From Podospora anserina (Eukaryota), in the NCBI GenBank assembly GCA_017654855.1, contig CM030336.1, positions 4,588,001 through 4,652,000 on the forward strand: DNA of 64,000 bases, in the 5' to 3' direction. This document shows, one piece after another, positions 26,303-63,628 of this stretch. A program made the position numbers and the translations under genes. How positions within the stretch are numbered: position 1 is the first letter of the stretch; every line of letters begins with the position of its first letter. The notes under the pieces are model-generated. The model was not told where the DNA came from, did not search any database, and saw only the letters and a program-made list of their open reading frames with translations.

Positions 26303-26441
26303 CACTCTTGAACGAGCCAGAGTCCCATTCAACACCATATTGACAGAATATTTTGCAATGTCACTTAAAGTCTAATCTTGACTGCAAAACCACTCCTCAC
26401 TGAGACCAAGGCCACAAGACATTCCAAAAGAGGCCGTTCCG

Positions 26442-29400: not shown

Positions 29401-29735
29401 CGGAGCTTGTCTACCACTTGGAGAACCCAGTACGGCAAAGCTGGCATGAAATGATCACGCTCTTGTCCAGTGAGTTGGGGTTCGCTTCTACACAAGTGGT
29501 GTCGTTTGAGGAATGGGTGGAAGCTGTCATGTCAGCGCCAGATCAGGGTAACCCTGCGAAGAAACTGTCGCGTTTTCTGAAGAATGAGTTTCGCAAGATG
29601 TCGTGTGGAGGGATAATCTTGGACACCGTCTTGGCTCGGAAGGCTTCACCTACACTGAGAGGATTGGGGCCAGTTGACAGTGAACAGGTGCGGCTGTATA
29701 TCAAGTACTGGAAGCATAGCGGTGTGCTGGGTTGA
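26442..29735 (+). CDS. NRPS-like carboxylic acid reductase (A-T-R)
   Basis: A domain ILHSSGTSGLPK, HYGATETG and GRTDD...GEKV; T domain LGMDSL; R domain TGSTGSLG, HAAWPMNF and GYAEAK. Introns ~27210-27270 and ~29275-29330. Confidence 0.93.
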
Positions 29736-30466
29736 TGATAGGGTACATACGGGGATTATTTGCTCCATAAACTCACACCAAAGCATTGCTATGAAATGTG
29801 ACGTGAGATCATGTACGTATCAAGCGAGGTAATCCGATAGCCAGTGTGTAAGCTACCTAAAGTAGGTTGCTGTTACATAATTCTTGAATGACAACAGCTT
29901 GGTTACCTACACAACTGGTAGAGGGCACGAGGTCCGAGGTCTTTGATACCTAAACTGTGATGTAGTGGATCAAGCCCATGATAGCCTTCGTCACTGGGTA
30001 CCTCGTGAGCGATAGGCGCCTTTTGGGTAGCCGACAGATACGAGAACGCCGCCATCATGGATGCTATCTTAGGTTCCTACCTACATACCGGCGGAGTGAT
30101 AGGATATCTTGCGGCAATTACCTTGAATCATCTTATAGGTCTTTGATAGAATGCTGCTTGTGCCTGTCGAGGCTGCTGGGACCCGAGCTGGGTCTGATGA
30201 GCGAGGTGACCTGCACTGGGATTACCGCTTTGAGGAGAAACTCTAACCCTACAATCCAACAACGGTATTCAACTTCCTCGGTAGTGACCAGTTTCTTGAT
30301 GGTAGCTGACCAAACTCGACATAGAGCTTGTTATTCGAATATAGCAATTCTTGCGAGAAACCAGGTTTGCATACTAGTGGTTATCGGTCACACTGCCTTA
30401 TTTGCGCTGGACTAAGCTCTCACGAGGATCCGTGTCAAGACTGCGTGGTGACATCCCTTCAAGCAC

Positions 30467-30477
30467 GGACCCGAGTT
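30467..30477. promoter_or_regulatory. Cluster promoter motif GGACCCGAGTT (PKS promoter)
   Basis: Exact 11-mer ~230 bp upstream of ATG 30708, with the variant GGACCCGAGCT at 30179-30189. Confidence 0.75.
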
Positions 30478-30707
30478 GACACCCCTGAGATCAAGGTCGA
30501 TCCAGGCTGTTCTTGTCCTTATGGGAACGTTGAGTTGCTGTCTTGATAGCGGTTGATATCTTAAGGAATAGTAAGCTTCTGGTGCTCAACTTGATCGCAG
30601 CAACCAAAACCTCCATTCAACACGAGGAGTCACTCAGCAAATTGGCTGACAAGACCTACACATCCACCTCACATTGGAAATTTGGCTCAACGCCACCAAC
30701 CACAGAC

Positions 30708-36700: not shown

Positions 36701-37606
36701 GCCCTGATAATCCACGGCGGCGGCCACGTAATGCTCTCCCGTAAAGACATCCGGCCCCGCCAAATCCACCACCTCCTCTCCCACGGCCTTCTCCCAATCT
36801 CAGTCGACTACCGCCTCTGCCCCGAAACAACCCTCCTCACCGGCCCCCTCCCCGACATCCTCACCGCCCACACCTGGGCCCGTACCTCCCTCCCCACCCT
36901 CAAACTCCTCAAATCCTCCATAACCATCAACCCAACCCACACAGCAGCAATAGGTTACTCAACCGGCGGCCTCCTAGCCATGTCCCTGTCCTGGACCTCC
37001 CCCCCCCCCTCCGCAATCCTCTCATTCTACTCCCCAACAAACTATCAATCCCCCTTCTGGCAAACCCCCAACATCCCCTCCCACTCCCATCCATACACCA
37101 CCACCCCCTTCAACCTCCTCGACTGCGTCCAACCAAACCCAATAACCTCCTACAACATCCCCCCCAATCTCCTAGCAGCAGGAGGGTGGATGACCCCCTC
37201 CGACGCGCGCAGCCGTCTAATCCTTCACATGAACTGGCACGCCCAAACCCTGCCCGTCTTATTCCGCGGTCTACCCCCCGCCGGAACCCCCCACCCAGAG
37301 AGCTACACCTCCATGCCACAGCCAGCAGAAGAGGAAATAATCAAAGCGAGCCCCTACGCGCAGGTTATAAGGGGTAACTACAAGTCCCCTACGCATATCG
37401 TTTTCGGGACAAAGGACGATCTGATACCCTGGCAGCAGGCCGAGGAGACGGTCAAGGCAATGAGGGAGCACGGGGTGGATGTGGGCTTCACGCTGGGGGA
37501 GGGGGAGCCGCACTTGTTTGACATGTACAGAGACCCGGATGGCAAGAGATGGGGGTACGTGCTGGAGGGGTACAGGTTTCTGTTGGAACGGGTGGGGAGG
37601 TTGTGA
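30708..37606 (+). CDS. Non-reducing polyketide synthase KS-AT-PT-ACP-ACP-CMeT-esterase/TE (methylorsellinate synthase type), with no SAT domain visible
   Basis: KS DTACSSS, EAHGTGT and GNIGHTE; AT GHSFG and HGFHS; PT GHAV and AVDNFLQ; ACPs LGIDSL and RGLDSL; CMeT ELGAGTGS. Intron 36631-36701 joins an HGGG/GYSTGG/GTKDD/EPHLFD alpha/beta-hydrolase release domain. Confidence 0.95.
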
Positions 37607-37789
37607 GGAATGGGAGGGAGGGAGGGAGGGAGTAGGCACCTCTCCAGAACCAGAGGCGTTGGATAAAACCTTTTCGAAGGCATCTAAACTTGGTGGAACG
37701 ATGCAAAATATAGGCCAACTTCCTATCCGATTCACATTCGTTAAAACAAAGTGCAACGCTGGCTGATGCTTTTCCAACAACGAACACCA

Positions 37790-40234
37790 TCAAATCATGC
37801 TCACAAATCCGCCACCCTGGAGGAATCGTATCTGTTGCTCCTTCAAATCAGCCCAATTCCTCAACTCCTGCTCTTCATCTTCCAACAAAGGAGGCGGTAA
37901 CATCCCACTCAGTTGGCCAAAGTGATCAAAATGCAGATTATGTGCGTGTTGCGGGTTGATTGTCGGCGCAGCCCTCTCCAATCTCATCAAGATATCCACA
38001 AACTTGCTTAGTGGCTCCTCAGCCTTTTGCGCAACAGGACCCTTCCGATCCGGGGCGCAGTTCAGCAGAGTTGATGCGACTTGGCGAATCTTGTTGATGA
38101 GACTGCTTCCGTTGGGCTCCATGTTACGTTGCGTGATGGAAGTGAGGACCGTCAGCAGGTTCTGCACGATTAGCTCCCGCTCATCAAACATCTGTGCATC
38201 AATGGGATCCTGCTGCTGAGCAGCTGCGTGGAGGGCGGCGGCGGCGACCGACTTAGAGACCGCATCTGACCCCAGAGCGCCATCAGTTCCGTTACCATTG
38301 ACAGCGTTCTCGGTAGCATATGCCTGTGCCTGTGCGGCTTGGGCAGCTTGGACTCGTGCTTGTTCGCGGTGATTGTCGCGGAGGTTGAGGTAACGCTCAA
38401 CATAGTAGGAACGCGTCGCCAGCTGAGAGGCATATATATTCGCTTTCTGGATCTCGTACTGCAAACGCCTCGTCTCGGCATCTTGCGAACTCGCCTGTGT
38501 CTGGACGGGAAGATAGTCGGGTGGTAGGTAGACATAAGTATTTCCTGTGTCGTAGTAGTTTGTAGCATTCGGCAAATCCATGCCGGATAGGCTGCTCCCG
38601 TCGTTCGTATGTTGGCCAAGATTGATGGTCAGCTCTGGCGGTAAGTGATCCATGACCTGCTTGACAGCCCCCAGACAGTCATCCAGCATCGATCTTTGAT
38701 CATGAAAGCCCAGCGAGGATATCCCGTAAGACAGTTCAATGCTGACCAGACCGTTCATGGTCATGTAGATTTTGATGCCCTGGATGAAGCCCGTCATTAG
38801 GGACACGACGCCTTCCGGTTGTACAAGGATTTGATGTGGAAGAATGTATTGATCGTCGACCTCGGCAGGGAACTCGGGATATGGTTCGGCCGGGGTAGGT
38901 GGTGGAAAGATGATTTCACTATGAGGCGCGCCGATCTGTACCATGGATCTGACACCGACAAACATGCACCAAAAGATGCGCTTGCCCAGCTGGTCTTCAA
39001 CGTGGTTGAACGATGGCCCTCGATAGGTAACCCCAAACATGTGCGACCCCGTTTCTCGCGGCTTGTGATAACCCATCTCGCGGATAAAGTCCATGGTTTG
39101 GCTCATGAACCGCCGGCAGACTTTCCATTGCATGGTGTACCCCGCTGCCAGACCGAGAAAATAGCTAGTCGCAGCATCGTAGACGGTGATATCATCCTTG
39201 TAAGGAAAGGCCGAACCACGAGCTTCGGTTGCGACAACACGACATCTTTCGATGAAGTTGATGGCTTTGGGAAACATGGCCAGCCCGTTAGGATGGTGTT
39301 TGAGATGCAGCCGAGCAGCACGTGGGAACGAGGCCACTAGACACCCAATCATGCTGGCCAGCAGGGCGAGGAACTCTCGGCTTGTCCTGTCTTCGCGTCT
39401 CATGAAAGAGTTTCGAAACGTGGGCTCGTGGGGGAAAGGCGCTAGCGGGTGTATATACCTGAAGAAATCGTCCACAAGAGGGACCAGCACCTCGAATGGG
39501 GCTATGAGCTCAGCGGACCACACAGGCTGCGCACCATGTAGCCCAGCAATGGATATCAGAGTCTCGGCGGCATTGTGCGGTCCTGGGCTCAGATTCGGCT
39601 CGAGGCGGGGCTGCTTTGCGGCTTTGGCAGCTTCGGCGTGTTTGTTTGGTGGCCCTCGGCGTTTCATGGTGCGGTTGAAGGTGCAGTCGACACCAAGGTC
39701 GCGACATGGGCGGCATGGCTGCGTCTCATCGCACTGGAAAGAAGAAAACTCGTCAGTCGGGAAGCACATAGAGACACTTGGGAGAAGAGGATGTGCAACC
39801 TTAACCTTGCGCTGACTACACATGTCACAGGCTCGGCGCAAGCGGGTAGCTTTCGAGGCGGCACCTGGAGGGGTTGCAGAACCGCCCTGGGATACTGGTG
39901 GCTGACCTGATGGGAGCCCGGCCGGTGGATGGTATGGCAAGCCATCAGGATGCGGTACATAATGTGAGGCTGGCGAAGATGCGGGTTGTGCGAGGGCTAA
40001 GGGGGTGGTTGGCGGTGGGGGCCCTGCGACGGAATCTTGAAGGGCCTGTAAGCTGTGATGGGCAACAGCAGAGGCAGCAGCATCGGCGGCATATTGGGGA
40101 TGTGGTTGAGGCTGGGTCGCGAGGTCGTCGGAGTCGTTGTGGGCAACAGGTTGTGATGGTGCGGACGTGTCGTTGGTGGGGACCTGGGCGTCGGTGGTGT
40201 TGTTGGAGGGCGGTGGTGGATAGTTGGATGACAT
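37790..40234 (-). CDS. Zn(II)2Cys6 transcription factor with a fungal TF middle-homology region
   Basis: RACDMCSQRKVK|CDETQPCRPCRDLGVDC once the 66-nt intron 39734-39799 is removed; FFRYIHPLAPFPHEPTF; KRIFW. ATG 40234 (MSSNYPP). Confidence 0.92.
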   Translation of the reverse strand: MSSNYPPPPSNNTTDAQVPTNDTSAPSQPVAHNDSDDLATQPQPHPQYAADAAASAVAHHSLQALQDSVAGPPPPTTPLALAQPASSPASHYVPHPDGLPYHPPAGLPSGQPPVSQGGSATPPGAASKATRLRRACDMCSQRKVKVAHPLLPSVSMCFPTDEFSSFQCDETQPCRPCRDLGVDCTFNRTMKRRGPPNKHAEAAKAAKQPRLEPNLSPGPHNAAETLISIAGLHGAQPVWSAELIAPFEVLVPLVDDFFRYIHPLAPFPHEPTFRNSFMRREDRTSREFLALLASMIGCLVASFPRAARLHLKHHPNGLAMFPKAINFIERCRVVATEARGSAFPYKDDITVYDAATSYFLGLAAGYTMQWKVCRRFMSQTMDFIREMGYHKPRETGSHMFGVTYRGPSFNHVEDQLGKRIFWCMFVGVRSMVQIGAPHSEIIFPPPTPAEPYPEFPAEVDDQYILPHQILVQPEGVVSLMTGFIQGIKIYMTMNGLVSIELSYGISSLGFHDQRSMLDDCLGAVKQVMDHLPPELTINLGQHTNDGSSLSGMDLPNATNYYDTGNTYVYLPPDYLPVQTQASSQDAETRRLQYEIQKANIYASQLATRSYYVERYLNLRDNHREQARVQAAQAAQAQAYATENAVNGNGTDGALGSDAVSKSVAAAALHAAAQQQDPIDAQMFDERELIVQNLLTVLTSITQRNMEPNGSSLINKIRQVASTLLNCAPDRKGPVAQKAEEPLSKFVDILMRLERAAPTINPQHAHNLHFDHFGQLSGMLPPPLLEDEEQELRNWADLKEQQIRFLQGGGFVSMI

Positions 40235-41508
40235 GATAATGATAAGCTTCAGTGACGTCCGATAATCGCACAATATAACTGGCCCAGCGCACTTTTACGG
40301 CTTCACTCCGGGTGATTCTGCCACTGGCGATTTTTCGGCGAAGGTCCGGGAGAATCACGGATCTTTTTTTGCGCCAAACCAAACGACAACATCCACAGGG
40401 GCCTGAGAAGTCACGTGGCTACCCGGAGCTGCCTTATCGGTTATCATCAGCCTATCAATCCCACCATCCTATCGCCATAGCCCACAAAGTGCACGGCCCT
40501 TTTGCATTCTGAGTCCAATTTGCAAGGGCGCCCGGACCACCCGAAGCACCAGTATATATTCGCGGTTCCCCTCCAATTCTTTCCACTTTCCCTTTCTCTT
40601 TTCTTCTTTATACTTACCTTGGCTGGCCTCCGGGAGATCATGAATTCCTAGAGGTATGTCGAAGAGCCTTCATTGCACATCGAGGAGTTTTTCGTCATTG
40701 TTTGCCCTTCGGGGTCGACAGGGCTGTAATTTTTGATGTTTACTTTTTTTCATTGTGCGCTTGACCTTTGTTGAGCCATGAGGAAGAAGCAAGATCTGGC
40801 AGCTTGCAGTGTTGTTTGACCGTGTTTTCTGCGATGATATGTCACCATGTTGGTGTTCTGGTGTTCATTCCCGTGTTTGACATTGATGTTGCCAATTCTA
40901 CTTTTTCCGGAGTTGAGAGTACCTACCCACAGAGTTTCACATCTAACAGTGTGGTGTGCAATACCCGCAAGGGCTTACCATCATTTACGATCGATATTAA
41001 TGGTCGTCCATTTATATTAAGTAATACTTGTTTGCCTTTGGGCGATATTGTTCTCGAAAGGCTTGCATTTATCTTGCAGTTGCGTATAACATCCTAGTTA
41101 AACTAGGAACTGCTGGCTAACTCCAACTGAAACGATGACTATGCTGTATGCCTGGGTATGCAGCCTGTGGTCAGGATCTGGATGGATAATAACCGGAGTC
41201 AAAGACTTGGTGATCAACAGGTCATTTTAATGCGTAAAGTCGAAACCAGGCTGTGTGGCTGGAGGAAAGACTGGGGGGGACTGCTTCTGTTTTGGTGGAA
41301 AAAGAGGGCAGAAGCATGAACGAAGCTCTGTTGTGTGGCGAGAAAAAAGCCAGGCAGCCACCTCACTTCGACACCTGGTCGCACCTTCCAAAACCAAAAC
41401 TTTGTCAATTTTTGCAGCACCGAGGGGCTGAAACTCGGAGTCCTCTAACAAGAACGCCAATCGCTCATGCTACCATAACAAGTTCTACCTCCTCATCCGT
41501 TTCCCCTC

Positions 41509-48431: not shown

Positions 48432-49351
48432 GGCGATTTAGTCGATTCGATTTTCGAGCACTGAACGGCGAGGTTCCTAGTAGATGGGAGAGAAGTCAGC
48501 TTTTTTTAAAAAGAACAGTAATGTAGGAGAGGGCAAGGCGCTAGCTGCCGGAAGAAAATGTCCCCGGAGCACACTGGTTCAACCAGACTGGTGGAACCCC
48601 AACCCTGGGCATGGGAAACCATCACCTCAGTTGACTTACGGCGCAGTCACTCTTTTAAGTGGGCAATGCAGGACCCCTCCCACACCCCAATGCTACGGAG
48701 CATTTCGTCAGTTGAGCCGCATCCCCACCTCAACGGCCCAGTCTGGCGGCCCGCCAATCAAACACGCAAATCTTTTTCCTGTTGGGCTGTTGGGGGTGAA
48801 CTGATAGACCACGTCGACTTTTCTCCAGTACTTACAGTCAATTGATGATGCCTCTGGAATACGACCGATTTAGCACCAGGGTCGGTACTTCGACGTGATC
48901 AGAGTCCACGAGCTGTTTGCTTGACACGGAGAGTCGGTACAGAAACCCTGATAGAGAACGGCCAGGAAGCTCGATTGTTTGTCTGATAGAGAATGGCCAC
49001 GAAGCTCGATTGTTTGCAGCTTTGTCGTGGTTTCAGATGGACCTCCATGGGCATATTGACATATTTGGCGCAAGCAAGGCAGATCCCGCGCCGTCCCGGT
49101 TGATCAACAGCACGGCTGAGAGGGGGCCAGCCCATCACCACAACCGCCAATGAGATTGACGCAAACATGAGCCAACACTCTCCCAAGACGTCTCTATACT
49201 TATGGCTCATGCCCTGGAAATACCTCCTGTGCGTTTCAGTTTTTTCAGTTCCTCAATCACGTCAACTGACAACTACCCCCAGTTCTAATGCTTCAAATCA
49301 ATCTTTCCGTACCAAGGTTGCCCGATTATCTCGATTGAATGCGAACACGAA

Positions 49352-50941
49352 ATGTCCACTGTCACTCGGTCATGGCAGGAGCAAGAACGACTACGTCTCG
49401 AGAAGGAGAAGGAGAATGAACGAAAACGGCTCGAGCAAGAACGAGAAAGATTGAGAATAGAGCAGGAGAAAGAGGCTGAAAGAAAGCTGGTCGAAAGCGA
49501 ACGGGCACTAAAGGAGAGTATCAGGTTGGCGTCAGTGCGAGCAGCCGCATCAAGAACAAGGACGATACCTACTTCAGCGAGGACAACCCAGACCACATCA
49601 TCAACATCTTTGCAACAGCCACCTTCGAGCACTACATACTCACTCACTCCACGGCCGATTGTTGATGCGCCGCAAGTCGCCACCAGCATACGCCTGTCGG
49701 TAATACCTATCGATTCGAATGGCCCCGCCTCATCTACACCAGGCAGTATAGCCTGTGGGCAGACTGGCTACTTTGACTGCGCATCTGAATATGGTGGCGG
49801 TTGCTGCCCGGTAGGCTTCGCCTGCAGCAAGGGTGATCTTTGCGTGTCGCCCCAGTTGGAAAAGGAAAAGCCCATGGCACGTTTGCCATGCCCGGGGCAC
49901 AATGGATATTTCGCTTGCGAAGAGAAGATTGGCGGTAGGTGGACCTCAGTTTAATAGCGAAATTCGAGATGAACTTGCAACTGAGATTCAACAGGGGGAT
50001 GTTGCCCAGCAAACTACGCCTGCATTAAGGATAGTCGAGCCCAGTGTCGCCTATCGCAGTCGAATCTGATACTTACCAACGTCGACCGCCTTGCAACACG
50101 AATTCCGATACCAACGTCGTCTCCGAGAAGCGAAGGCACAAGCATTACTGGTACTCTAGCACCAGCACCTCACTCAGAGCAACAATCCCGCGTTGGAACT
50201 CCCGGGGACGCGGCCGGCATTATCGTAGGGGGCATCATGGCTATAGTTGCCTACTTCCTCGGTAGCTATCTTTTATTCATCTACAGACAGCGTCTTCACG
50301 GTTCGCCTCTCAACAAAAGCTTTCGCGTCTTGGAGGTTCGATCTCAATGGAGAGATGCAAGAGCAAAGGCCAGAAGCGAGCTCCCTTCCCATCATGGAAT
50401 GTCCGAGTTGGCCGCTTCCAGACCCACATCTTCTTTGCCGCCTCTTCCTTCGCTGCCAGCGACGGAACCACCTCTATCTGTTGCGGTGGGGGTGACGAGG
50501 GAAAGGCAGGTGGATATCACACATCCCCTCCCACCACCACCACCCCTCAAACTGAGGCCACCACTCTCGACGTCGCCGGACACTCCGATGGTCACACTGC
50601 CGGTGTCCCCTCCATCGGCCACTGTCCCAACCCTGACGCCGACCGGCATCTCTCCTGTGTCAACAAAGACGACGAACATTGTGACGCAGCACGCTCCGCT
50701 ATCACCGCCGCCGAGGATCCCACTTCCACCTACACCCATGCAGGGAAATATGCATAGGTTGAGAGTGCTGGAACACACCAAGATGCCAGGAGCCCTTGGG
50801 ACAGCGGAGGATGGTAAGAAACATGGGATGGAAGGCATTGATACCGGAGGAGTGGTGTTGGAGGTATGTGCAGACGAACAAGAAAAGCAAGAGGATAGCA
50901 GCTCCGCAAGGGCAGACAGCAGCACGATTGTCTGGATGTAG
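49352..50941 (+). CDS. Single-pass membrane protein with two Cys-rich GGGCCP modules, a Ser/Thr stalk and a Pro-rich tail (5' end uncertain)
   Basis: CGQTGYFDCASEYGGGCCPVGFAC, then after an intron (~49934-49993) CPGHNGYFACEEKIGGGCCPANYAC. TM segment AAGIIVGGIMAIVAYFLGSYLLFIY followed by RQR. Confidence 0.7.
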
Positions 50942-51245: not shown

Positions 51246-52732
51246 TCAACGTCTACCAACACCGACCGACGACCGTGCAGCCATCACCGGAATGTTGGAA
51301 GCCTCGGTGCCACGGATGCAGTCTCGTACCGTTGATGCCTCTGGCTGACCTTTTTCCAGATAATATCCCTGGCGCGGTCCAGATTTCAAAGAGTTACCAT
51401 GGTGCGCACCCTGAGCCAGAGGCGCTCCATGACGTTGGAGACCCCCGGAAGGCTGTTCCGAGTGACCCTCCGCCAAATACGAGACGCTCGTAACTGTCCC
51501 ATTAATCTGCAGAGTTCCCCTACCCCCGACGGTCGCGTTGAACTGAACATTGACTCGTGGGTTCTCTTCTCCAGTTCTCGTTGTCGAAGACTGTTCCTGG
51601 GGGACCATCTCCCTGATGAAAGAACACAGCTGCTTGAACCCAGGTTCGTTATCCGAGCCAAACTGGCACATGGTGACATGATCACGGTGGACCGGCTTGG
51701 GCTCCGCGCCAGGTATCGCCATGTCGGCCACCGTCTGGTCGACGATCAAATCCTTGGCGCCCGGCAGCGGGAGCTGTTCGCAGAAGTTGACGATTTTCCA
51801 TCTCAGGGAGGTGCGGCCTTTTGCGTCGACTCCTCTGGTCCCGTCGGCGAGAACGTGGCGGAAGTCGTCCATTAGGTTGACGAGCTGCTCGGAATCCTTT
51901 TGTAGGGCCTTGACGAGCTTCGAGTGGGAGAGCCCGATTCTCCGGAAGAAGCCTCCGCTGCGGGGTGAATCGAGAGCTGAGTATGCTTTGGCGAGGTGAG
52001 ACCAGTTGTCTTTGGAGTTCGCCAGGTGTGGTGTCCCTAGGAAGCTCTGTTAAGCCGTCAGTGACTGTTTATGAGGATAGACCATCAGACGAAGGGGTGG
52101 CTTACGATACCGGCTGTTGCGTCGGCAAGGTGTTGGTATCTGCGCTCGTACTGGGCGATCAAGAGAGCTTGTTTGACAATAAGGCCTCCCAGACAGTGGG
52201 CAACGAACACGATGGGGCGACGGGCATCGATACCCTTGCGGTCGAGGTCGAGTAAATCGAGAAGAGTCCTGGCCAGGTCACGGATGCCGGCTACTGAATC
52301 GTTATGAAAGACGTCTCCGTTGTATCCAAAGGTGAAGGTTCTTGCTCTTTCCAGTCTCGGTTGTCGATGGAGTAAGTCTTGCGGCCAGATGATCCTCTCT
52401 GGCAAAATGCCGTCCTTCGTCCTCGGATTCACAGGGCCATGGCGGTCGCAAAGGACGAGGCTCGTTCCGGGGTCTGTATGAGATTCGACGTTGGATGTTT
52501 GGGCATGTCCTGGTGCTGGTTTCGACTGTGATTTCTGCTTGGATGTGTTGTCGCATTCCCACGTCTTGATCGGATCGCCATTGACACCGTGGACTACTAC
52601 GATACTGTAAGGGTTAACTACTTGTCGACGTCACAGCGGGAAACACACAGTTGAAAAGGCTCACTCGATATTGGGCGTAACCGGATTCCCGGGCTCTGGG
52701 TACAGCTGTTGGAGGAACACTCGATCTGACAT
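51246..52732 (-). CDS. Stand-alone SesB-like alpha/beta hydrolase with Cys at the nucleophile position and a C-terminal extension
   Basis: Spliced reading: MSDRVFLQQLYP...DIVVVHGVNGDPIKTW...IWPQDLL...RTFTFGY...PIVFVAHCLGGLIVKQA...SFLGTPH...IVDQTVA...HRDHVTMCQF. Two introns (~52605-52664 and ~52048-52105). Confidence 0.85.
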
Positions 52733-53052
52733 TGTCGCCTGGCATTCGGACCAAGTTGTGTCTGTGTGGAGGGTGTGTCGAGGAGGCAGATAGTCAGTGT
52801 AATGTGGAGATTTTGAGCTGAAAGAATGTTAGATTACAGTTGCAGCTGGGCAGTTTCCTGTCTTCGACGTGGTCGCATGATACTCCTGAACATGTCGACT
52901 TGGCAAAACACAACCCAATGTGTGGGTCGTTGGCCAGCAGTTCGTAGGGCAGCTGCTCAGTTGCGGAACAAACAGATCAGTCACAGCCCTCCACGACCGT
53001 GTCGGCCCAAAGCCATGTTGAGCAATCCTTGAATAGCATTAAAGGCTCTCAC

Positions 53053-54319
53053 ATGGAGGCCGAGTCGTCCGTTTCCCTGAAAACCACACTTCTTCCAGGC
53101 AACATCACCAGTTTGACAGACACGATGGACGAGAGGGAACTGAAACAAGATCGTGATAACGCTGACAAGGGTCTTCCAGGACTTTATGTCGTGTCCGAAC
53201 CATCCACCAATGACGTGAAGAATGACGAGGAGATTCTCGAGTACGTCCGACACCCCATTCACCACACTTGAACCTTCCCGGCTGTCGACGACCTGCTTCG
53301 CTAACAAGCCATCCACTTTCCAGCATAGTTTTTGTTCATGGCCTGAATGGCCACTGCGTCAAGACTTGGAGCTTGGAGAACAGCAGCAAGCTGAAGCGGC
53401 TGTTGGGTCAGGACAAAAGCGTGTTCTGGCCCTCGGACCTACTCCCGAAAAAGACAAAGCACGCACGCATCATGACATGGCAGTACGAGAGCAAAGTATG
53501 GCGCAACCGAGCAAAAGCATCAGTGACAGACACAGCAAAGCAGCTCCTCGGGGACCTACAAACAAAGCGGGAACTCTTGAGCTCCAGCGGGCCCATCGTC
53601 TTTGTCGCACACAGTTTGGGGGGAATTATTGTGAAACAGGCAAGAATCGCTTAGCTCGATGATCCGACCTTGGGCGAACCTTCACTGACAGCCAGTTGTC
53701 AACATTGTTCCAGGCCCTTTTCGAAGCCAATAAGATCCGGGTTGAGACATTCCGCGACATTGCCAATTCGACAACTGGAATAGTGAGTACCTACCCAGGG
53801 CGGACAGCTCGAGCTTTCACTAACGGACCCATAACAACAACAGGTGTTCTTTGGAACGCCTCACCGCGGCTCAGACGTAGCCAAGACTTTTGCTCCGCTG
53901 CACAAGATCACCTCCGTTGGCTGGGCCAGGTCGTTTCTCTCGGATCTCGAGACGCACTCTGATGAACTCCGCCGCATATCAGACGAGTTCCGGGCTGTTG
54001 CCCAGATGTACGTCATTGCGACGTTTTACGAGAGAAAGATATATCCTGGGCTTCAAAATCTGGTGCGTTTTTGTTTCCAACATACCCCCAACACAAACGA
54101 TCGGCCGCTGACACACGGGGACAATAGATTGTTGACAAGCCTTCTGCCGTGATGGGCATCCCGCATGAAGATATTATGCCGCTTGACGGTGATCACGGCA
54201 GCATGTGCCGGTTTTCTCAGAATGACCCCCGCTTCGATAAGGTGTGGATGACCATCAGGAAGGCCGCAACGCCTTTGGCGGTTAGGGGACTGTCGCCTAC
54301 TGCGGCCCAGTCAGTCTAG
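53053..54319 (+). CDS. Stand-alone SesB-like alpha/beta hydrolase (Ser nucleophile), 5 exons
   Basis: DIVFVHGLNGH, FWPSDLLP, RIMTWQY, PIVFVAHSLGGIIVKQ|AL, VFFGTPHRGS, TFYE and IVDKPSA...DGDHGSMCRF. Stop TAG 54317-54319. The second intron is GC-AG (53640-53713). Confidence 0.88.
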
Positions 54320-55151
54320 ATGGAGATGAAGATGCATGATGCATCTGGCATTATTCCACGATTGGTACTACCCATAGGGGGTTGATAGGCTAGATCGTGA
54401 ACAGGAGATGCACCGAGGGAGGTGGGGAGACATATGTTAGGATATGCAGGGTAGGTGGTTGGTGCCCGGTGTGGGTCGTGTTCCCGTCATTGGGGTGCAG
54501 GTGGGTAAGGGGCTTTCCAGTCACGGCCCGAAGCTACCCCGTTGACGGGCCGTCTGTTGTTGGGTAGTGATTGCGAGAGCCCAGGACGAATGGAGAAATG
54601 GGCAGTGGGTGCCCAACTTGGGATGCAAAATCCCGAAAGAAGTCTGTACCTTGAGGTACTCTTGGGTTTGTTCTGCTCACACCCCTTCGACGTCAAGTGC
54701 GGCACGGCTTCATGCGACCGGGTTGTAGCCAAGTTCTTAGCTTTTCAACGATTGGTGATGGACAGTATGTGGTTGATGTATCGATTGGGTGGCTGGAAGG
54801 ATGTCACACTGCCCGCCTGGAGGGAAGACGCGATCAGACCTTCTCATGTGCGTAGGGACCTGTGGAAGCCAATGCTACAAACTGATTAGTTTTCACGGAC
54901 ATCAACAACTCCGGTATTCAAATACGTGGCATACTTAAACTGTGGATTGATACCTGGCTTGATCTCGTTGACGCAGAGCTGCTGTTGAGCATCACATCGA
55001 CTCACCACATCTTCCCCCTTACGAGCCATTCAGTCGTTTTCTTGATTCCCACAGGTCAGTTGTTGAGAGACTGACTTCTACGAATGACGTGGTGGCCCCA
55101 GCGTCTGACAATGTGACACCAGCCACGCAATCCGCCTCTCTATCGTTCACA

Positions 55152-55505
55152 ATGCCTCCCAAGCAAGCCAAGGAAGTCCCGTACCCGGAGAAGCAAAGTT
55201 ACAGGGCCAAGGGACTCAAACTCGACACTGCGGCATATGCCGACACCCTCACCAATGCCTACAAGACAACAAGGGACATTGCCTCGCAGATCCGAGAGCA
55301 AATCGAACCATTCATCAGGAAGGCGAGGGCAAGAGTCAATTATCTGATCGAGATTATTCAACAGCTTCGGAAAGAGATTAGGATTGCCAGGGACACTTTG
55401 ATCATTACCAACAGGGATGAGTTGTATCCCTCTATTATGGCAATGGAGGAGGTGGGCGATCCATTATTCTGGAGGCTAGATGAAGAGTACAAGGAGGCGC
55501 CGTGA
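55152..55505 (+). CDS. Small helical/coiled-coil hypothetical protein (~117 aa)
   Basis: ATG in a typical fungal context (CACAATGCCT) and an amphipathic helical sequence. No family recognised. Confidence 0.55.
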   Translation: MPPKQAKEVPYPEKQSYRAKGLKLDTAAYADTLTNAYKTTRDIASQIREQIEPFIRKARARVNYLIEIIQQLRKEIRIARDTLIITNRDELYPSIMAMEEVGDPLFWRLDEEYKEAP

Positions 55506-56058
55506 GTTTGAGATGGTTGATAGCAAGACAAATCTGTACAATACATACCTGATCAGGAACTTCCTTGTAGTGAGAAACTTGCCTCGTGAAGCCCACATCA
55601 TGCTTCGTAATACCATCCACGTCTCTCTCACTGTGTGTCCTATACCCAATCGCTGTTGAGACCCTAGCGTTCTGGTGCTGTCAGAGTGTAAAGTCCCCAT
55701 GTGAAGATCTTTCTATTGTCCTTTGTAGGTAGGTAGGTATTTGGCAATTGAATTTCAGATCGTTCCTATGTCGAGCAATCAGCAATCATTTACATGGCTG
55801 AGTTTATCATCATCGTCAAGGTAGTTGCAGAGCTGGTTGTTCAGGGGCAGACCCAATGTTGAAACTTCTGAGTGCTGTGAGCGCCTATGGATGGTCACGG
55901 AATGGCACCAGCCTAGGTATCTTGATATCACCTCGCATAATTGCGTATTCATGCAACATGTCTTGATACTTCACAAGATACCTATAATTATTTACAGGCG
56001 GGAACGTCGTCAACGAAGGAACCAGTAAACTTCCATTGGATATCTGTCATACTACTCT

Positions 56059-56925
56059 TTAGCTGTTGACGGCAGTTCCTCCCCCGGCCCCGACATTCCC
56101 GCCTCCACCACCCCCACCCCCTGAGGCACCAGTTCCAGTCTGCCTGCCACTCTGCCTCTCTTCCACCTTGGCAAGGTGGTCCATCAGCAACTCGGCAACG
56201 GTAGCATGACCGCCCTTGACGGCCGCATCCATGGCGGAGTCGCCGTCATGGGTCCTGGGGCTGGGGTCTGCGCCCGCGTCCAAGAGGATCTCGACAATGC
56301 GGGCATGACCACTTGTGGCAGCCCCGTACAATGGCATAAGATACCCCTTGCTCTCCTGGTTGTGTTTGGCCCCAGATTTCAACAAACTCTTGACCACTCT
56401 TGTATGCCCATTAGTCGAAGCCAGATACAGCGCCGTCATCCCGTCACCGTCCTGCAGGTTGATCTCCTCTTTGACACCCTTTTTACCGAGAAGGGACTTG
56501 ACGACATGAACGTAGCCGACACCAGCGGCATGGCAGAGTGGGTTCCAATTGACATGAAACTCCTTGGTGGCAGTCACGGCGTCTTCTTCTACCAACAATT
56601 CGGATGCGAGTTCGTTGTCGTTGCTCAGCGCCGCTCGGAGGGGAGTCCAGTCCTTGGTGTTCTTCAGGTTGACGTCGATGCCCTTCTGAGCAAGGAGTAC
56701 CTCGATCACATCAGCATGGCCGACAAAGGCGGCGGAGAACAAGGGGCCGGCCCCGTCCTTGTCCTTGCCGTTAAGGATCTTGTCTTTGAACACGTCGGGA
56801 AACGACTTTTCGTGCCTCTTGAGAAGGAGCTCAACCAACGGTGCGAAACCGCCGGATGAGGCGGCGCGCAGTGACGCTGCTGCTCGGTCCACGGCCTCGT
56901 CGGATGTATTTGGACTGCCAGCCAT
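56059..56925 (-). CDS. Stand-alone ankyrin-repeat protein (~7 repeats) with a Gly-rich tail
   Basis: Repeats such as GAGPLFSAAFVGHADVIEVLL, GMTALYLASTNGHTRVVKSLL and PLYGAATSGHARIVEILLDAGAD. An intron (56926-56998) sits immediately upstream of the ATG; the upstream in-frame exon has a stop and no ATG. Confidence 0.88.
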   Translation of the reverse strand: MAGSPNTSDEAVDRAAASLRAASSGGFAPLVELLLKRHEKSFPDVFKDKILNGKDKDGAGPLFSAAFVGHADVIEVLLAQKGIDVNLKNTKDWTPLRAALSNDNELASELLVEEDAVTATKEFHVNWNPLCHAAGVGYVHVVKSLLGKKGVKEEINLQDGDGMTALYLASTNGHTRVVKSLLKSGAKHNQESKGYLMPLYGAATSGHARIVEILLDAGADPSPRTHDGDSAMDAAVKGGHATVAELLMDHLAKVEERQSGRQTGTGASGGGGGGGGNVGAGGGTAVNS

Positions 56926-58522
56926 CTACAGAATGTCGGACTCTTGAGTTGAGGCGGTTTGGTTGAAGTCCACGAAGAAATGGTAGATCGGTACTCACCT
57001 TTCGCCCGGTTGTCAGGAACACCAGTACTGTTTCGATGAGGATTGACTTGAAGATTGCGAGTCAACCGAGGGCTGAGGTGTCGTCTCTGTTGATGTTAAC
57101 TTTCGAAAGTTGAATGGAGTTGGAAAGTCGACACGGGAGCCTAAATCGTGCCGGGGAGTGACAAGCTCTGAAACAATATGTTCTACCGTGGGGAGAATAT
57201 GGCGACAGGACTCGTTTGGCATTCTCCGCGAAGCGGAGGCGGATATCCCTTGACATATAGCCTATACACAAGGTAGGTAAGCTTGCGAGATTGTGCTAAG
57301 GTCCTTTCATGGAAGCCAAGTCCAAATTAGGTCATGGTCTCCATTCGTTGCCCAGCTTGTTGGGCCCCCATGGCACAGTCGCACATGATTTAGAGTGATT
57401 TCTCAGTCATTCCCAGGAAGCTTCCCCTCTTGGAAACACCTTAGAACCGGAAAGAACTCCGATGAAAACCCAACACTGTATCATCAGCCCTTTGCCAATC
57501 ATTGCTAGGCATCCACCCTCAGGTATTCCGCGTGCCTAGCATCTCGCATTCAGACCTGATCCTACCAGGATCTCTGGTCATCGCCTTTACGTTACTTTAT
57601 CGAAGAGTTGTTTTCTCCCACGGGGCCCAAACACGGCACCTCAAGTGAGCAAGTCACTCAAAGTATCGCGCTACATCGGACAGGCAAGAGTAGCACACCC
57701 TCAATGCGTTGGGCGTAGGCGGCGCGGATATCGGAAAGGCGGTTTGCTTTCTCCGTGGAAGGCCCCAATTAGCAATCCGCAGCGTCGTGACTGTTTGGAA
57801 TAGGTATCGAGACCAGTCTTGTTGATAGTTGAACTGGATGGGTAACATCTTTGGAGTTGAGTCCGGCTCCGCCATAACAACGTGCCTGGAGATCACCACT
57901 GGCGTGATTGGGCAAGATACACTCAAACCTCTCTTGCAGGATGCCAGGGTACTCTGCCTGCAAGACATCTCATTTGTTCGGTTCTTGGACCGTTGGGAAA
58001 CACAACAGCAGGGTGTGAGCATACGCTGCATGCAGTATTGCTCCTCAACCTAGAGGAATAACGTCCTGCATACGTCCTGTCCCTCATATTTGAGGAACAA
58101 CAACATGTTGCATGCATCATGTGGGAACCCCTTGATCCACGCCGTTCATGTATATGGGAACTTTCTACTAATTTCATTGGGCACTCATCTTTTATGGCTC
58201 CCGAGAAGTCAATGAGGTGTATAGAATATCTCCGTCTACCGTCGTATGAGAGGTAAAGCGTAAAGGCTTGGCTGGCATGTTTTTGGATGGGACGGGAGCC
58301 CTTGAAGTTGTTGAGATCCATTGCTGCTACAGCCCGCAACAGCTGGACACGGGAGGTATGCAGTCGGGACTTTTTCTCGGTGGTCTAGAAACCCAATCAC
58401 TGTGGTCAAATGACTCTTTTCGATGTCTCCTTACTATGGCTATCACATAAACGCAATGAGATGCATCAGATGCTGTGACGTTGGGCATCGTTGGGTGCAT
58501 GTTTGCATTGGCGCCAATCTTC

Positions 58523-59074
58523 TCACACGGACTTTGCCCTTCCCCTCCCTTTCGGGTTTCTTATCTTTTCCGTCAACTCTGCAATTTCCATTTCAAGCGC
58601 GCGTTCCATTGCTGTTTTGGCCCTTGAGAGTGGATTCCAATCCTTTTGCCCTGGAACACTGTCCCGCAGCTTGACCTGCAACTTCCATTTGTCCTCCTCG
58701 ATGTCCCTTGCGTAATAGGACAACTCCCAGTTCTTGGATCTCTCGGCTCTCAGTGCGGCCTCGAGATCAGAAATGACCTCTCGGGCGTTTGCGTCAAGCA
58801 CACGTCGGACTTGTGAGTGGTAGAGAGAGGATTCGGCGAGGCCCTCGCGCAGCATTTGTCGCATGCTCTGAATGTCTTCGATCAAGTCGCGTTTTTCCCA
58901 GTCGTGTTCCCAGACTAGGGAGCCAAAGTAGATGTTTGCTTCTTCGAGTCGATCCAAAAGCTCCAATATGCGAGGGACTGCTGCATCCCAGTTGCTGTGG
59001 TTGTAGTGGCTGTTGTCGGTCGCCATGATGTCTTCGTTCCATTGAGGGCCTGGTGTGACTGTTGGCCGTTCCAT
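58523..59074 (-). CDS. Coiled-coil hypothetical protein (~183 aa), divergent from the NLR gene
   Basis: ATG 59074 (MERPTV), a charged heptad-rich sequence and a basic C-terminus. No family recognised. Confidence 0.6.
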   Translation of the reverse strand: MERPTVTPGPQWNEDIMATDNSHYNHSNWDAAVPRILELLDRLEEANIYFGSLVWEHDWEKRDLIEDIQSMRQMLREGLAESSLYHSQVRRVLDANAREVISDLEAALRAERSKNWELSYYARDIEEDKWKLQVKLRDSVPGQKDWNPLSRAKTAMERALEMEIAELTEKIRNPKGRGRAKSV

Positions 59075-59321
59075 GGTCAATCGATGATTAGGTGCGTATG
59101 TTCGTCGTTGAGGTCACTGTTGGGTTGCATGTATTGAGTGGTTGGGTACCTACCAAATACCTTACCACTGGTTCTACAATTTCATTGGTCCGCCACATGG
59201 CCCCATACTCACTCATCAACAATCGGTCGAGATCGCATCCTGAAATGGAGAGGTGAGTTCGAAGCACTCAATCGCGATGAGCCGACCACATCGCACGACC
59301 AAGACAACGTGACACGGCAAA

Positions 59322-62300
59322 ATGGCAGAAGCAATGGACTCGGTGCAAAGATTCTGGCACCTTCCCCATAGGATCACAGGTGGCTTCAGGCGAGATGACG
59401 AAAAATACCACTCGGATCTTATTCTGTTGCACCCAGACCCCAAAGCAGTGAAAGAAGAAGAGGAAGTCTTACCACCACAAGCAGAGTGTGTCTGACCAGC
59501 AAAATTGGCCACCAGAAGCGGACATATAGCTGATGAAAGCGTAAAGACTCATATTCGTGGCCGGTCTTGGTGGTCATTACCTGGAGACATGGAAACACAA
59601 AGATGAATATGGCAAAGTAACAATATGGCCTCGCGATCTTCTTGGCTTAAAGCATTGCGGTGTTGAGAACGTACGAGTCTGGTCTTTCCACTATAACACC
59701 ACCCTACGAGGCGCCTCAGATGCCACCAAGGTCACTGACCATGCCCACGAGCTTCTCGACCTGCTCATGATGAAGCTCACCGGGGACTTGTTTCCTGTAC
59801 CAGGGCCGGACGGTCGATGGGAATTCCAACTGAACCCCATCATATTTGTGGGACACAGTCTTGGAGGCATGTTGATCAAACGGGCCATGCTTTTGGCGAA
59901 TACCAGACCCAATTATCATGTTCTGTGGCATGCAACTCGAGGAGCAGTAGGCATTCCATACTTGTGTGATTATAGGCAGGCACTAACGTTTGGAGAAAGA
60001 TGTTCTTTGCAGTTCCGCATCACGGTCTTGACAGGCAGGATTGGAAAAAGTATCTGAAATTGGTCTTGAACATCAATTCTCCGCTCCGTGGCTTGACGCC
60101 ATCATCGAGAATGGAGGCGCAGGCAATACAGAATAGCGGCGTCCTCGCCGACATTACTGACGAGTTCAGGAGGCTCCAAGAGTACCTGTTCTTTGTCAAC
60201 TACGTCGAGGGCAAGGTGATGCCAGATTTGGATGCACCGGTGAGTACCTACCTAGTCATCTATGCTTCGGCTGCTAGTTTACGTCAACTGGTATCAACAG
60301 TTGCTAATAAGTGTAACCCATAACAACAGCTGGTCGATGAAGGGCGCGGGTGGATGGACGCCCCCCGGAAACTGCAGATCAAGCTCGAAGGCCACCACCT
60401 GGACCTTTGCAGATTCGCTGAGCCGAATCCAAATGTGCAAAAGAAAGGGGGCTTCCAGCTCGTGGTGTCGCACTTGAAGCACCTGATGGGCGTGACCAAA
60501 GCACTGGAACACATTGGTGATGATGCAAGGAGGGCTCTCGAATCACTCTGCCCAACGGGCTTTCATGGCTATTTCATGGCAAAACAAGCTACCACGGGGA
60601 CCTGCGGATGGATCTCGGAACGAAAAGAATTCCAAGACTGGGTTGAAGATGACAAAGAGAGCCGAATGCTTTGGATTCAGGGTCCACCAGCGTCAGGAAA
60701 GAGCTTTCTCGCCCGCCACATCATCACAGATCTGATCCCTTCATCGACAACACAGAAGGTCGCCCATTGCTTCCTCGACGAGTCGGTCGCTGGACGCAGG
60801 ACTTTGGTTGATCTGCTGCGCGCGACTCTCCACCACGCCCTCCGCATCGAACCAGAGCTGATTCAACATTATCTGGTCCCGCCGTACCTGGAGGCGCAAC
60901 GACACAGCAAGACGTCCAATAACCCCCTCTCAGACGACAGCATTTGGACCCTGGAAGTTCTGGTTCCACTGTGGCCGGAGGTGGTGTCCAAGGTAACCGC
61001 CCGCGACATTCTTACTGTCGTAGTCGACGGTTTTGATGAAATGTCACGCGATTGCCAGGACGGTTTCTTCAGTTGCATTGATGATTTCACGGCTAAGGCC
61101 GAGTCACAGGAACAACGAGAGCGTCTCAAAGTCCTTTTGATTTCACGTGAGGACGGTAAACTCAAGGAACGGAAAGACTTTCAACACTATTTCATAACCA
61201 CGGAAGACATCCGAGAGGATGTTCAGAAGACGGTGATGGCGGCTCTGACAAACATCGACAACTGGGACGGTCCTGAAATGGACATGGTTCAACGACGTCT
61301 CAATTCGCTAGATACAGCTCAGGTGAAAAAGATATGTGATATCGTTGTGGAGAGCTCAAACGGTGATCATCATTTGGCAAATCTAAAAGCCCAGGAGTTG
61401 TTCGGTTCTTTGGTTATTGAGCCCATCAGCACGACAGCAGCCCTAGCGAAAGAGCTACCCAACGACACTGCCAGCATGTACGACCGGGTCTTGAGGCGGG
61501 CACAGCGAAATACGACCTACCAACCTTTTCTCAAACACATTCTGCGATGGGCGGCGTTTCAGATTGAACCTCTCAAGGAGGCCGAGGTAAACACGGCAGT
61601 AGCTCTCAGCATGGCGCAAGATCAAGTGTCCCAGCGGCGAGTGACCACATTAGAATTGGAGAGTTTGCGAAACCTAGTAGGCAGTACAAGGGCCATGGTC
61701 CAGCAACATGGACGACGGCTTGTCGAGGTGAAGGAAGGTGTTCTCCAGCCCGTCAATCAGACACTGAAGAGTTGTCTCACGAAACCTAGGAATGATCAGT
61801 CCCTTCATCTAGAGGAAATGTCTTCTCATGCCGCGCTCGCCAAGATTTGCATCGAGTACCTCACGATGCCATACTTTGCAGACTCTCGGCAGCCCACAGC
61901 AAGCTCTCTTGAGGACAAGGTCAAGAAGAGGATCGAAGAGCACCCCTTTAGTTGTTATGCTGCTCCCCACTGGGATGATCACGTTGCAGCAGCTGGGTCT
62001 GTATGGGGTGAAGCTGACAGTCATATCGTTCAAGTTCAACAGCTTCTTCGGGACGAGACAACCCACTATGGGATATCCTGCGCAGAAGTCCGTTGGTATT
62101 TGAAGAGAAGAACCATGGACGAATTTCCTCTTTCTTACCGGGGCGCCTTGGACGAGGCTCCAACGGCGGCCTCCACGCCACTGTCAGTCGTGGATTCACC
62201 CCCCCTCACGGAGTCACCAGACACGGTCTTCGAAAGTTCTGGAGACGTTGCAGCCACCGGAATTACGATTAGGTCGCTGAACCGGGAGCACGAGGTCAAG

Positions 62301-63628
62301 CAAGACGACCCTACCCCGGCTGGACGTATCAACCATGCTGGGCCTGCCGTCCGTGATCAGGATGCCGTATCAGGGGTCGGTCATCCGCGGGGGCCCCTTG
62401 ACGTTGACACGAATTTCCAGAACTTGGTTGCTTTGTCCCACGGACCAATTCAAAGTCTAAATCAACTTGAAAGAAAGGGGGCCGGCGAGGCAGCAAAAAG
62501 TCCCATTGCAGTTCAACGCCATCCAGAGCGAACCGCTGCACTTGAAAGGCACGATCAGCCACCTGAACGATCGGCTCTATCAGGAACAACGCTGCCTCTG
62601 CGTTATGTGGAACGACGTAAGACTCGTAGTCTGCGAGATGTTGACCCCCTCGAACTGCTGCAACCAAAGGAGGCCACAGGCATTGTGGATTCCCTGAGAA
62701 AAGCCGACAAAGATCCCGTCAGCGTGGGGGAGCAGTCCATGCTAAATGCAAGTGTGAATCCTCCAGTTCCTCAGCCGACAACTGCCGCCCAGTTCAGCAA
62801 TCACAGGCCTAGTCAAAATGCGCCCACACGGCCCACCGACCGCGGTGTTTCTAACATCGCAGGGCAAAGCCAAACCAGAAGGGACCGCGAACACAGGAGC
62901 TTCTACGACAGACTTCAACAAGATCCAAATCTGATGGACGTCGTACCACCACCACCTGACCTAGATCTGGAACGGAGAACAATGAATGCCATGCTAAACA
63001 CTAATACACCATCCCAACAACCTGCTCCACCGACGGTCAGCCTTCTTCCTAACATTGTACCTGTATCACCGCAGCAATCTCCCAAAAGACAAAGCGTTGA
63101 TCCCGCACCACTTGAGCCTCGCTCAAACGCTTCTAGAAGATCGGAGGAAACGACTTCAAACCCCGCACACGCCAGCACAAAGAAACCAACAGAAGCACGC
63201 AAATCCGAAGAACCTGTCAGCCATCGTGCTGCTGCTGTCAGACCGCCATCAACTAATAGACTTCCACCAGCGGCAGTCCCTACTTACCCCAATCTGTCCC
63301 CAACTACCTATACAGCAGATAACAGAGATACACGTTTCAGGAATGAACCACAACCCCAACCCGGTCTCGACTCCGCACAATTTCCCTACCTGCATGATGA
63401 TGACCAGTCTCAAGATGGGTCAGAACGCAGCGAGTCAGTGGCTGGGGGTGATACACCGGCACAAAAGGCAAAGCGAGGCCTGCTTAGAAGAGCGCTGCAC
63501 AAGACAGCCAAGAGAGTGGATGAGGCGAGCAAGAGAATTGGTATGACCTCCGCATTTGTTTTCATGGCTGGAGGATGTGATGCTGATATTCTTGAGGGGT
63601 TGTAGCGAAGGGTTTGAAGGTGAAGTGA
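59322..63628 (+). CDS. NLR-like protein: SesB-like alpha/beta hydrolase, NACHT NTPase, winged helix and a long disordered C-terminal tail
   Basis: LIFVAGLGGH, IWPRDLL, PIIFVGHSLGG, MFFAVPHHG and GHHLDLCRF. Walker A GPPASGKS and Walker B VVVDGFDE; ILRWAAFQIEPL; HAALAKICIEYL; YAAPHWDDH. Introns ~59485-59544, 59947-59999, 60240-60329 and 63541-63605. Confidence 0.88.

Follow-up and report, generated by a model that had tools for sequence, protein, structure and literature searches.

How a fungal NOD-like receptor (NLR) without sensor repeats is controlled, and whether the genes around it belong to its system, is the question raised by a locus on chromosome 5 of Podospora anserina. Fungal NLR-like proteins number in the thousands and are mostly of unknown function (PMC13449251), and one third to one half of fungal NLRs show no recognised sensor domain (PMC12258605, PMC4986451). 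The locus holds six genes at positions 51246-63628 of the window, which is the whole 64-kb stretch analysed (positions 4,588,001 to 4,652,000 of contig CM030336.1): two stand-alone hydrolases (H1 and H2), a stand-alone ankyrin-repeat protein (ANK), a hydrolase-NACHT protein of NLR type (the NLR gene) and two small helical orphans (cc3 and cc5). Four of these genes, NLR, H1, H2 and ANK, form a conserved set which is clustered from Podospora to a Lasiosphaeris-like fungus, and the clustering outlasts both rearrangement and deep divergence (40% NACHT identity). The new element is that the ankyrin and NACHT genes are maintained as separate but linked genes. Because the set is found together in distant relatives, its genes probably work as one unit; we regard it as an even call whether they form a conserved, co-inherited functional module around a repeat-less STAND/NLR-type ATPase (STAND, signal transduction ATPase with numerous domains), whose predicted parts would act together.

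Orthologues of ANK and of the NLR are located on contigs of the same length in all seven assemblies where both were retrieved, and one of these contigs spans only 23,130 bases. Furthermore, the accession numbers of ANK and NLR are exactly 2 apart in the six NCBI-annotated Podosporaceae genomes (6/6), and in Cladorrhinum PSN332 the H1 orthologue is 5 accession numbers from the NLR, matching the six-gene order of P. anserina. At greater distance, the metagenome contig L001 (11,073 bases) shows NLR(+), an H1-like gene(-), an H2-like gene(+) and ANK(-) within 10 kb. The NACHT protein of L001 is 40% identical to that of the window, with an N-terminal part close to Lasiosphaeris hirsuta, its ANK is 43% identical to that of the window, and its H1-like gene carries the AHCLGG motif of H1. 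On a second metagenome contig, L002, an NLR is accompanied by an H1-like gene, again with AHCLGG, and by the beginning of an H2-like one. The divergent H1(-)/H2(+) arrangement is repeated in both contigs, and the distant contigs keep an H1(-)/H2(+)/ANK(-) block with the NLR on the opposite side in relation to P. anserina. H2 orthologues are known from tblastn on L001 and L002 and from the accession spacing in one genome. The preliminary description of this DNA had named unlinked genes in relatives as an outcome that would speak against it; linkage was found instead in 7/7 assemblies and in L001.

The features of the locus are given below, with gene models built from open reading frames and splice signals.

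51246 to 52732, minus strand: H1 (PODANS_5_10945), stand-alone DUF676-like alpha/beta hydrolase of 455 amino acids; coding sequence 52732 to 51249, two introns.
52732-52665, 52604-52106 and 52046-51249, minus strand: exons of H1 in our own gene model.
51480 to 51557, minus strand: beta-rich motif of the H1 tail, RVNVQFNATVGG / RGTLQINGTVTSV, a pseudo-repeat of hQhNxTV.
52733 to 53052, no strand: divergent intergenic region of H1 and H2, 320 bp between start codons.
53053 to 54319, plus strand: H2, stand-alone DUF676-like hydrolase of 327 amino acids, four introns.
53053-53240, 53324-53639, 53714-53782, 53844-54062 and 54128-54316, then the stop codon, plus strand: exons of H2 in our own model.
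55152 to 55505, plus strand: cc3, small helical orphan of 117 amino acids, with an intron in the 5' untranslated region (5'UTR) at about 55052-55119.
56059 to 56925, minus strand: ANK, stand-alone ankyrin-repeat protein of 288 amino acids in a single coding exon, with a 5'UTR intron at 56943-56998.
58523 to 59074, minus strand: cc5, small helical orphan of 183 amino acids, divergent from the NLR gene.
59322 to 63628, plus strand: NLR-like hydrolase-NACHT gene PODANS_5_10920, about 1348 amino acids.
59322-59485, 59547-59946, 60000-60239, 60330-63540 and a probable last mini-exon 63597-63625, plus strand: exons of the NLR gene in our own model.
60681 to 61040, plus strand: NACHT core, from Walker A (GPPASGKS, 60681-60704) to Walker B (VVVDGFDE, ending at about 61040).
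62116 to 63628, plus strand: disordered, poorly conserved tail of the NLR, ending in a conserved basic stretch (KAKRGLLRRALHKTAKRV...).

PODANS_5_10920 of P. anserina S mat+ matches the NACHT exon at 100% identity, and PODANS_5_10945 (entry P0144, 455 amino acids) matches the H1 gene model, also at 100% identity. The locus name of ANK is Pa_5_10930, judged by the tag QC761_510930 of a sister species. Transcript contigs from Logan, assembled from runs of three studies, span all six genes, the NLR only in patches. The RNA label of these runs is a guess; since spliced contigs can come only from RNA, the runs were taken as RNA, and the contigs were used for presence and splicing, not for expression level. 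Joints were found in spliced contigs at 5/5 tested coding introns of H1 and H2: intron 52047-52105 of H1 in contigs of runs X1 and X3, and all four introns of H2 in contigs of X1, of X3 or of both. One of the four is the GC-AG intron 53640-53713, on which spliced contigs of two runs agree. The 5'UTR introns of cc3 and ANK are also visible in spliced contigs, and NLR intron 60240-60329 fits a loose contig end that passes from 60239 into the beginning of exon 4. All the genes first listed from the letters of the DNA, namely the hydrolases, the hydrolase-NACHT gene, the ankyrin gene and the two orphans, are thus present and transcribed, and the tight divergent pairs described there are real, with 320 bp between the start codons of H1 and H2 and 247 bp between those of cc5 and the NLR.

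The NLR protein shows a DUF676-like hydrolase domain, a NACHT domain, a winged helix, a five-helix cap, a disordered tail of about 450 amino acids and a basic C-terminal helix, in this order. The N-terminal domain is of effector type, DUF676/Abhydrolase_6-like with a GHSLGG motif, and the central nucleoside triphosphatase (NTPase) matches Pfam NPHP3_N (9.2e-29) and NACHT (1.7e-3), with Walker residues G123, K124, D233, G234 and F235 invariant in 18/18 sequences (alignment A3). According to Pfam, no C-terminal repeat family is present in the 1093 amino acids of the NLR exon. In an AlphaFold2 model (18 sequences, mean pLDDT, the predicted local distance difference test, of 70), NTPase, helical and winged-helix parts are followed by the five-helix cap up to about residue 595. 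Beyond the cap the model is disordered, and starting at residue 605 of exon 4 the pLDDT stays under 50; the initial claim of an NLR lacking sensor repeats is therefore borne out. A fold search with the NACHT model gave weak STAND/AAA+ matches only, none at E<=0.001. No second nucleotide-binding domain gene was detected by Pfam, there being one NACHT only among the genes of the locus and eight large open reading frames elsewhere in the window. The public PODANS_5_10920 model is marked partial: exon 1 is missing from it and a different donor precedes the FxxxPHHG exon, while the N-terminus and splice choices of our model agree with orthologues P0002-P0004. Because its removal restores the C-terminus of the orthologues, a 56-nt 3' intron is proposed at 63541-63596, with the stop codon at 63626-63628; the public model probably misses this intron. 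Within the tail, at about 62900-63000, a short island (RSFYDRLQQDPNL...) is common to Cercophora samala, Apiosordaria backusii and Cladorrhinum (by eye), and this island may be a docking motif.

Eighteen strong orthologues of the NACHT protein were found in Sordariales and Monosporascus. They have in common the N-terminal hydrolase domain, the NACHT and the cap, followed by a long, poorly conserved tail, and all 18 carry only PF24883 and no repeats; most cover just 54-58% of the query. A short Lys/Arg-rich C-terminal stretch with a hydrophobic face was recognised by eye in 14 of the 18, and three of the four that lack it (P0006, P0010 and P0012) end within or just past the conserved part and look truncated. 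An exhaustive search gave 67 representatives of the NACHT family below 1e-30, and repeats were absent in 16 of the 18 longer members scanned, with ankyrin arrays in P0178 and P0231. In P0178, which is 33% identical, the fused ankyrin array is located at residues 650-967, directly after the cap. With 18/18 orthologues and 16/18 longer members repeat-less, the repeat-less architecture is the rule in this NACHT family rather than a product of decay. The existence of the fused relative P0178, together with the fact that in Sordariales this NACHT type is most often paired with ankyrin (PMC12258605), is what could suggest a decaying or recently rearranged hydrolase-NACHT-ANK gene from which the ankyrin part has broken away. 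This is hardly credible, given that at least seven assemblies and L001 have the same separate, opposite-strand arrangement, no reading frame is interrupted, every gene is transcribed and residues are conserved. The decaying rearranged NLR that had been named at the outset as a contrary outcome was not encountered; moreover, an ancient fission of a fused gene would be a stable split and not decay.

The ankyrin protein matches Pfam Ank_2 (4.3e-32) and Ank (7.9e-30), with about seven repeats (count by eye) in tandem 33-residue units, and the alignment of its orthologues keeps the repeat consensus. A stop codon stands immediately 5' of the ATG, and transcript contigs extend to 57185. Orthologues were found in P. 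anserina, six other named Podosporaceae and several further contigs, and they are stand-alone proteins of 238-302 amino acids with 53-79% identity in the search. In alignment A4, identity across Podosporaceae is 51-77%, with 37 invariant columns. Beyond these orthologues, ankyrin matches in a search of 5.8 billion proteins drop to 31-34% identity. A complex prediction of ANK with residues 60-605 of the NACHT exon scored 0.15 against a mark of 0.34, without controls, and speaks neither for nor against binding. The ankyrin orthologue of L001 (8440-9771, minus strand) carries an Ala-rich helical insert of about 230 amino acids after the first repeat, and the orthologues P0034 and P0031 show other long loop inserts at fixed places between repeats.

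The nucleophile motifs of the three hydrolase domains are AHCLGG in H1, AHSLGG in H2 and GHSLGG in the NLR domain. The G-x-S-x-G elbow is thus found in H2 and in the NLR; H1 shows AHCLGG instead, with Cys for Ser at residue 160, which is kept in 4/4 orthologues. Cys at the nucleophile position was found in 4/4 H1-type genes versus 0/37 NACHT-family proteins showing the motif, and the Asp and His are aligned in all three hydrolases. The three domains are 26-32% identical pairwise (H2 has 32% identity with H1 and 28% with the N-terminal domain of the NLR), and two intron positions are common to all three in our gene models. A tree of 13 segments and 108 columns recovers H1 (4 rows) and the NLR domain (7 rows) as separate clades, both supported at 96% or more, while the two H2 rows have no resolved placement. 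At this support the H1 and NLR-domain clades indicate paralogues older than the species split, and the three domains are old paralogues, not recent duplicates.

The hydrolase family was assigned through Pfam proxies (DUF676, PGAP1), not through the sesB-like profile of Dyrka et al. and Wojciechowski et al.: DUF676 matches 7/7 tested segments (best E 2e-5), Abhydrolase_6 6/7 and PGAP1 3/7. The P. anserina hydrolases are all under the Pfam gathering scores (full-length H1 has 17.2 bits versus 20.3), and the DUF676 cut-off is passed by relatives in the NACHT family, such as P0204 at 41 bits. A lipase/esterase nature of these domains is a prediction. In an alternative reading the locus is a lipid or membrane housekeeping cluster and not an immune one, where three DUF676/PGAP1-like hydrolases would act on related lipid substrates, the ankyrin protein would be a scaffold and the NACHT would regulate one enzyme. 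The Pfam matches fit such a cluster, as do the conserved single-copy orthologues with invariant catalytic and P-loop residues, the basic, hydrophobic-faced tail of most NACHT orthologues, a potential membrane binder, and SERAC1, a human relative of the sesB-like domain that remodels phospholipids (PMC4986451). We nevertheless consider it rather improbable: work on fungi regards NACHT-effector fusions of this kind as receptors for cell death or defence (PMC4986451, PMC9815663), and the conserved set is without a metabolic gene such as an acyltransferase or a transporter.

H1 carries a C-terminal extension of 120 amino acids, and its structure prediction, with a mean pLDDT of 49.5, was too poor for a fold search; no significant PDB match to it was obtained by sequence or by profile. 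The pseudo-repeated hQhNxTV motif of this tail, predicted as a hairpin with low confidence, is partly conserved in the Cladorrhinum orthologue P0145. These properties would fit amyloid signalling, with a prion-like motif in H1 templated by an NLR, as in HET-S/NWD2 or sesA/sesB/het-eN. We judge this very unlikely, as neither the H1 tail nor the N-terminal leader of the NLR matches a Pfam amyloid-motif family at E<=10, no further hQhNxTV copy is found near any gene of the 64-kb window, the H1-like gene of L001 lacks the motif, and hQhNxTV is unlike the PP core NxGxQxGxN described in PMC9815663.

No publication naming Pa_5_10880 to Pa_5_10920 was found in a literature search whose scope lay outside supplementary tables, which may list Pa_5_10920 among NLRs; within the same scope no description of such a cluster was found in the fungal NLR literature, which agrees with the earlier statement that the arrangement was not recognised from described loci. 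The closest architecture is that of the sesB-like/NACHT/ANK NLRs, such as Pa_7_10370 (Table 3 of PMC3689799), which also have a predicted lipase/esterase N-terminal domain fused to a NACHT of the NPHP3_N/TLP1 kind, and ankyrin repeats are most often paired with this NACHT type (PMC12258605, PMC4986451). However, in the locus studied here the repeats lie outside the NACHT protein, which shows a disordered tail and a basic helix instead, and a conserved ankyrin gene is located two genes away on the opposite strand; furthermore, these are conserved orthologues and not variable repeat arrays. The amyloid clusters (HET-S/NWD2, sesA/sesB/het-eN and PP-motif; PMC3321046, PMC5485727, PMC9815663) resemble the locus in that an NLR is encoded next to free-standing proteins of effector type, one of them a sesB-type hydrolase, which are believed to work in trans. 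In contrast to them, no common short motif is found here at the effector C-terminus and the NLR N-terminus, the NLR has its own hydrolase domain, and the separately encoded part is the repeat module. Pa_5_11700, a repeat-less sesB-like/NACHT protein listed as 'None detected' in Table 3 of PMC3689799, has the identical two-domain description. For the catalogued P. anserina repeat-less sesB-like/NACHT proteins, no conserved partner cluster was found in the literature, supplementary tables aside.

Plants have truncated NLRs, such as TIR-NB proteins without leucine-rich repeats, and paired sensor/helper NLRs, in which the pair consists of two proteins that contain a nucleotide-binding domain. By analogy, both would share with this locus a nucleotide-binding switch without repeats of its own that depends on a genetically linked partner. 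Unlike in the plant pairs, a single nucleotide-binding domain is present here, and its candidate partners are one protein made up of repeats alone and two paralogous enzymes.

In the functional module that we propose, the NACHT protein would be the switch and its N-terminal DUF676-like lipase/esterase domain an effector. The disordered tail occupies the site where fused relatives start their repeat array, and the basic C-terminal helix would possibly bind membranes. The ankyrin protein would provide a repeat surface in trans, binding either the NACHT protein or the hydrolase paralogues and so gating oligomerisation; that it is a trans-acting regulator is a first guess. H1 and H2 would be co-effectors or monitored partners of the fused hydrolase domain. 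As all the parts are conserved as single-copy orthologues, the input is more likely to be a conserved cue, for instance damaged membranes or lipids, or a microbial product that is itself conserved, than strain-specific non-self. A more specific version, which we find unlikely, is a true and long-stable split NLR, with ANK as the detached sensor or autoinhibitor of the hydrolase-NACHT switch and with H1 and H2, the former changed to a Cys nucleophile, as guarded targets or decoys whose modification would be read by the ANK-NACHT pair. The preliminary description had proposed a multi-component split system of the immune kind. This proposal is partly supported, with the conserved linkage and the transcription of all six genes in its favour; the ankyrin protein as sensor and binding between the proteins are not supported, and the parts evolve as conserved single-copy orthologues, unlike variable immune sensors.

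Several observations weigh against a functional module or against the split immune system first proposed. Much of the linkage evidence comes from a single family, Podosporaceae, and is explicable by inherited gene order, and adjacency read from accession numbers presumes that the numbering follows gene order. At depth, the evidence consists of two contigs from metagenomes, both of the same lineage. Of the 18 contigs with an NLR orthologue, 9 yielded no ankyrin orthologue, including those of Monosporascus, Lasiosphaeria ovina, P. australis and Lasiosphaeris hirsuta; this is a weak negative, as the search covered proteins of 158-504 amino acids among word-sharing candidates and some contigs are short. 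The small genes cc3 and cc5 gave no tblastn match on the distant contigs L001-L004. With 16/18 longer members repeat-less, the family may work without any repeat partner, and a repeat-less NACHT is a common catalogue category (PMC3689799, PMC4986451, PMC12258605), not unusual by itself. The conservation of ANK is unlike that of the hypervariable repeats of fungal NLRs described in PMC4986451, its likeness to the fused array of P0178 is generic only (32%), and the single-copy conservation of every part is unlike an ordinary variable immune receptor. Finally, Pa_5_10920 is not among the 17 STAND genes up-regulated in incompatibility in Table 3 of PMC3689799.

Some of these points fit passive synteny, in which the repeat-less NACHT protein would act alone as a STAND protein, under the control of its own cap, disordered tail and C-terminal helix, and ANK and the hydrolases would be unrelated neighbours that have so far stayed next to it. 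Besides the repeat-less members of the family and the contigs from which no ankyrin orthologue was retrieved, the frequency of repeat-less NLRs agrees with this explanation: a C-terminal domain is annotated in only 52% of fungal NLRs according to PMC4986451, and in only 67% of those of Sordariales according to PMC12258605. We see passive synteny as possible but somewhat doubtful, for two reasons. At 40% NACHT identity a stretch of 10 kb still holds all four families, with the NLR moved to the other side, and this relocation across the block means that breakpoints occurred without dispersing the set. In addition, unlike random neighbours, these include two paralogues of the NLR's own effector domain.

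The locus is a concrete conserved case of a repeat-less receptor that is linked genetically to a repeat protein and to paralogues of its effector. As P. anserina is an established model for fungal non-self recognition, the control of repeat-less fungal NLRs becomes testable in it, and enzymology has a defined target in the hydrolase paralogue with the conserved Ser-to-Cys change. If the split NLR were true, P. anserina, a genetically tractable model, would possess a fungal immune receptor of the guard type made of several polypeptides, open to direct testing.

The two small helical genes appear to be lineage-specific additions to the conserved set, judging from the sequence comparisons. cc3 has no Pfam match and no usable relative in the Atlas, and after splicing of its 5'UTR no upstream in-frame ATG is found. 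cc5 gave a sub-threshold DUF3348 match only in Pfam, its Atlas look-up was uninformative, and it is covered by unspliced contigs in X1, X3 and X6. According to accession spacing, which gives a gene count and does not imply identity, one annotated gene lies between ANK and the NLR in 6/6 Podosporaceae genomes. At position 58768, within cc5 (minus strand), contigs of three RNA-like runs from three studies show T, and the window and one DNA run show C, which is either a strain difference or an RNA-level change.

To the left of H1, at 49289-50941, there is a Glu/Arg-rich open reading frame and a Pro-rich one with a hydrophobic stretch, and neither matches Pfam. An FAD monooxygenase is encoded at 7172-8662. 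Upstream of the locus, positions 26382-40294 of the window contain a secondary-metabolite cluster with an adenylate-forming reductase (27271-29370), a polyketide synthase with the domains KS-AT-DH-ACP-ACP-methyltransferase (30534-36704) and a fungal transcription factor (37793-40294, minus strand).

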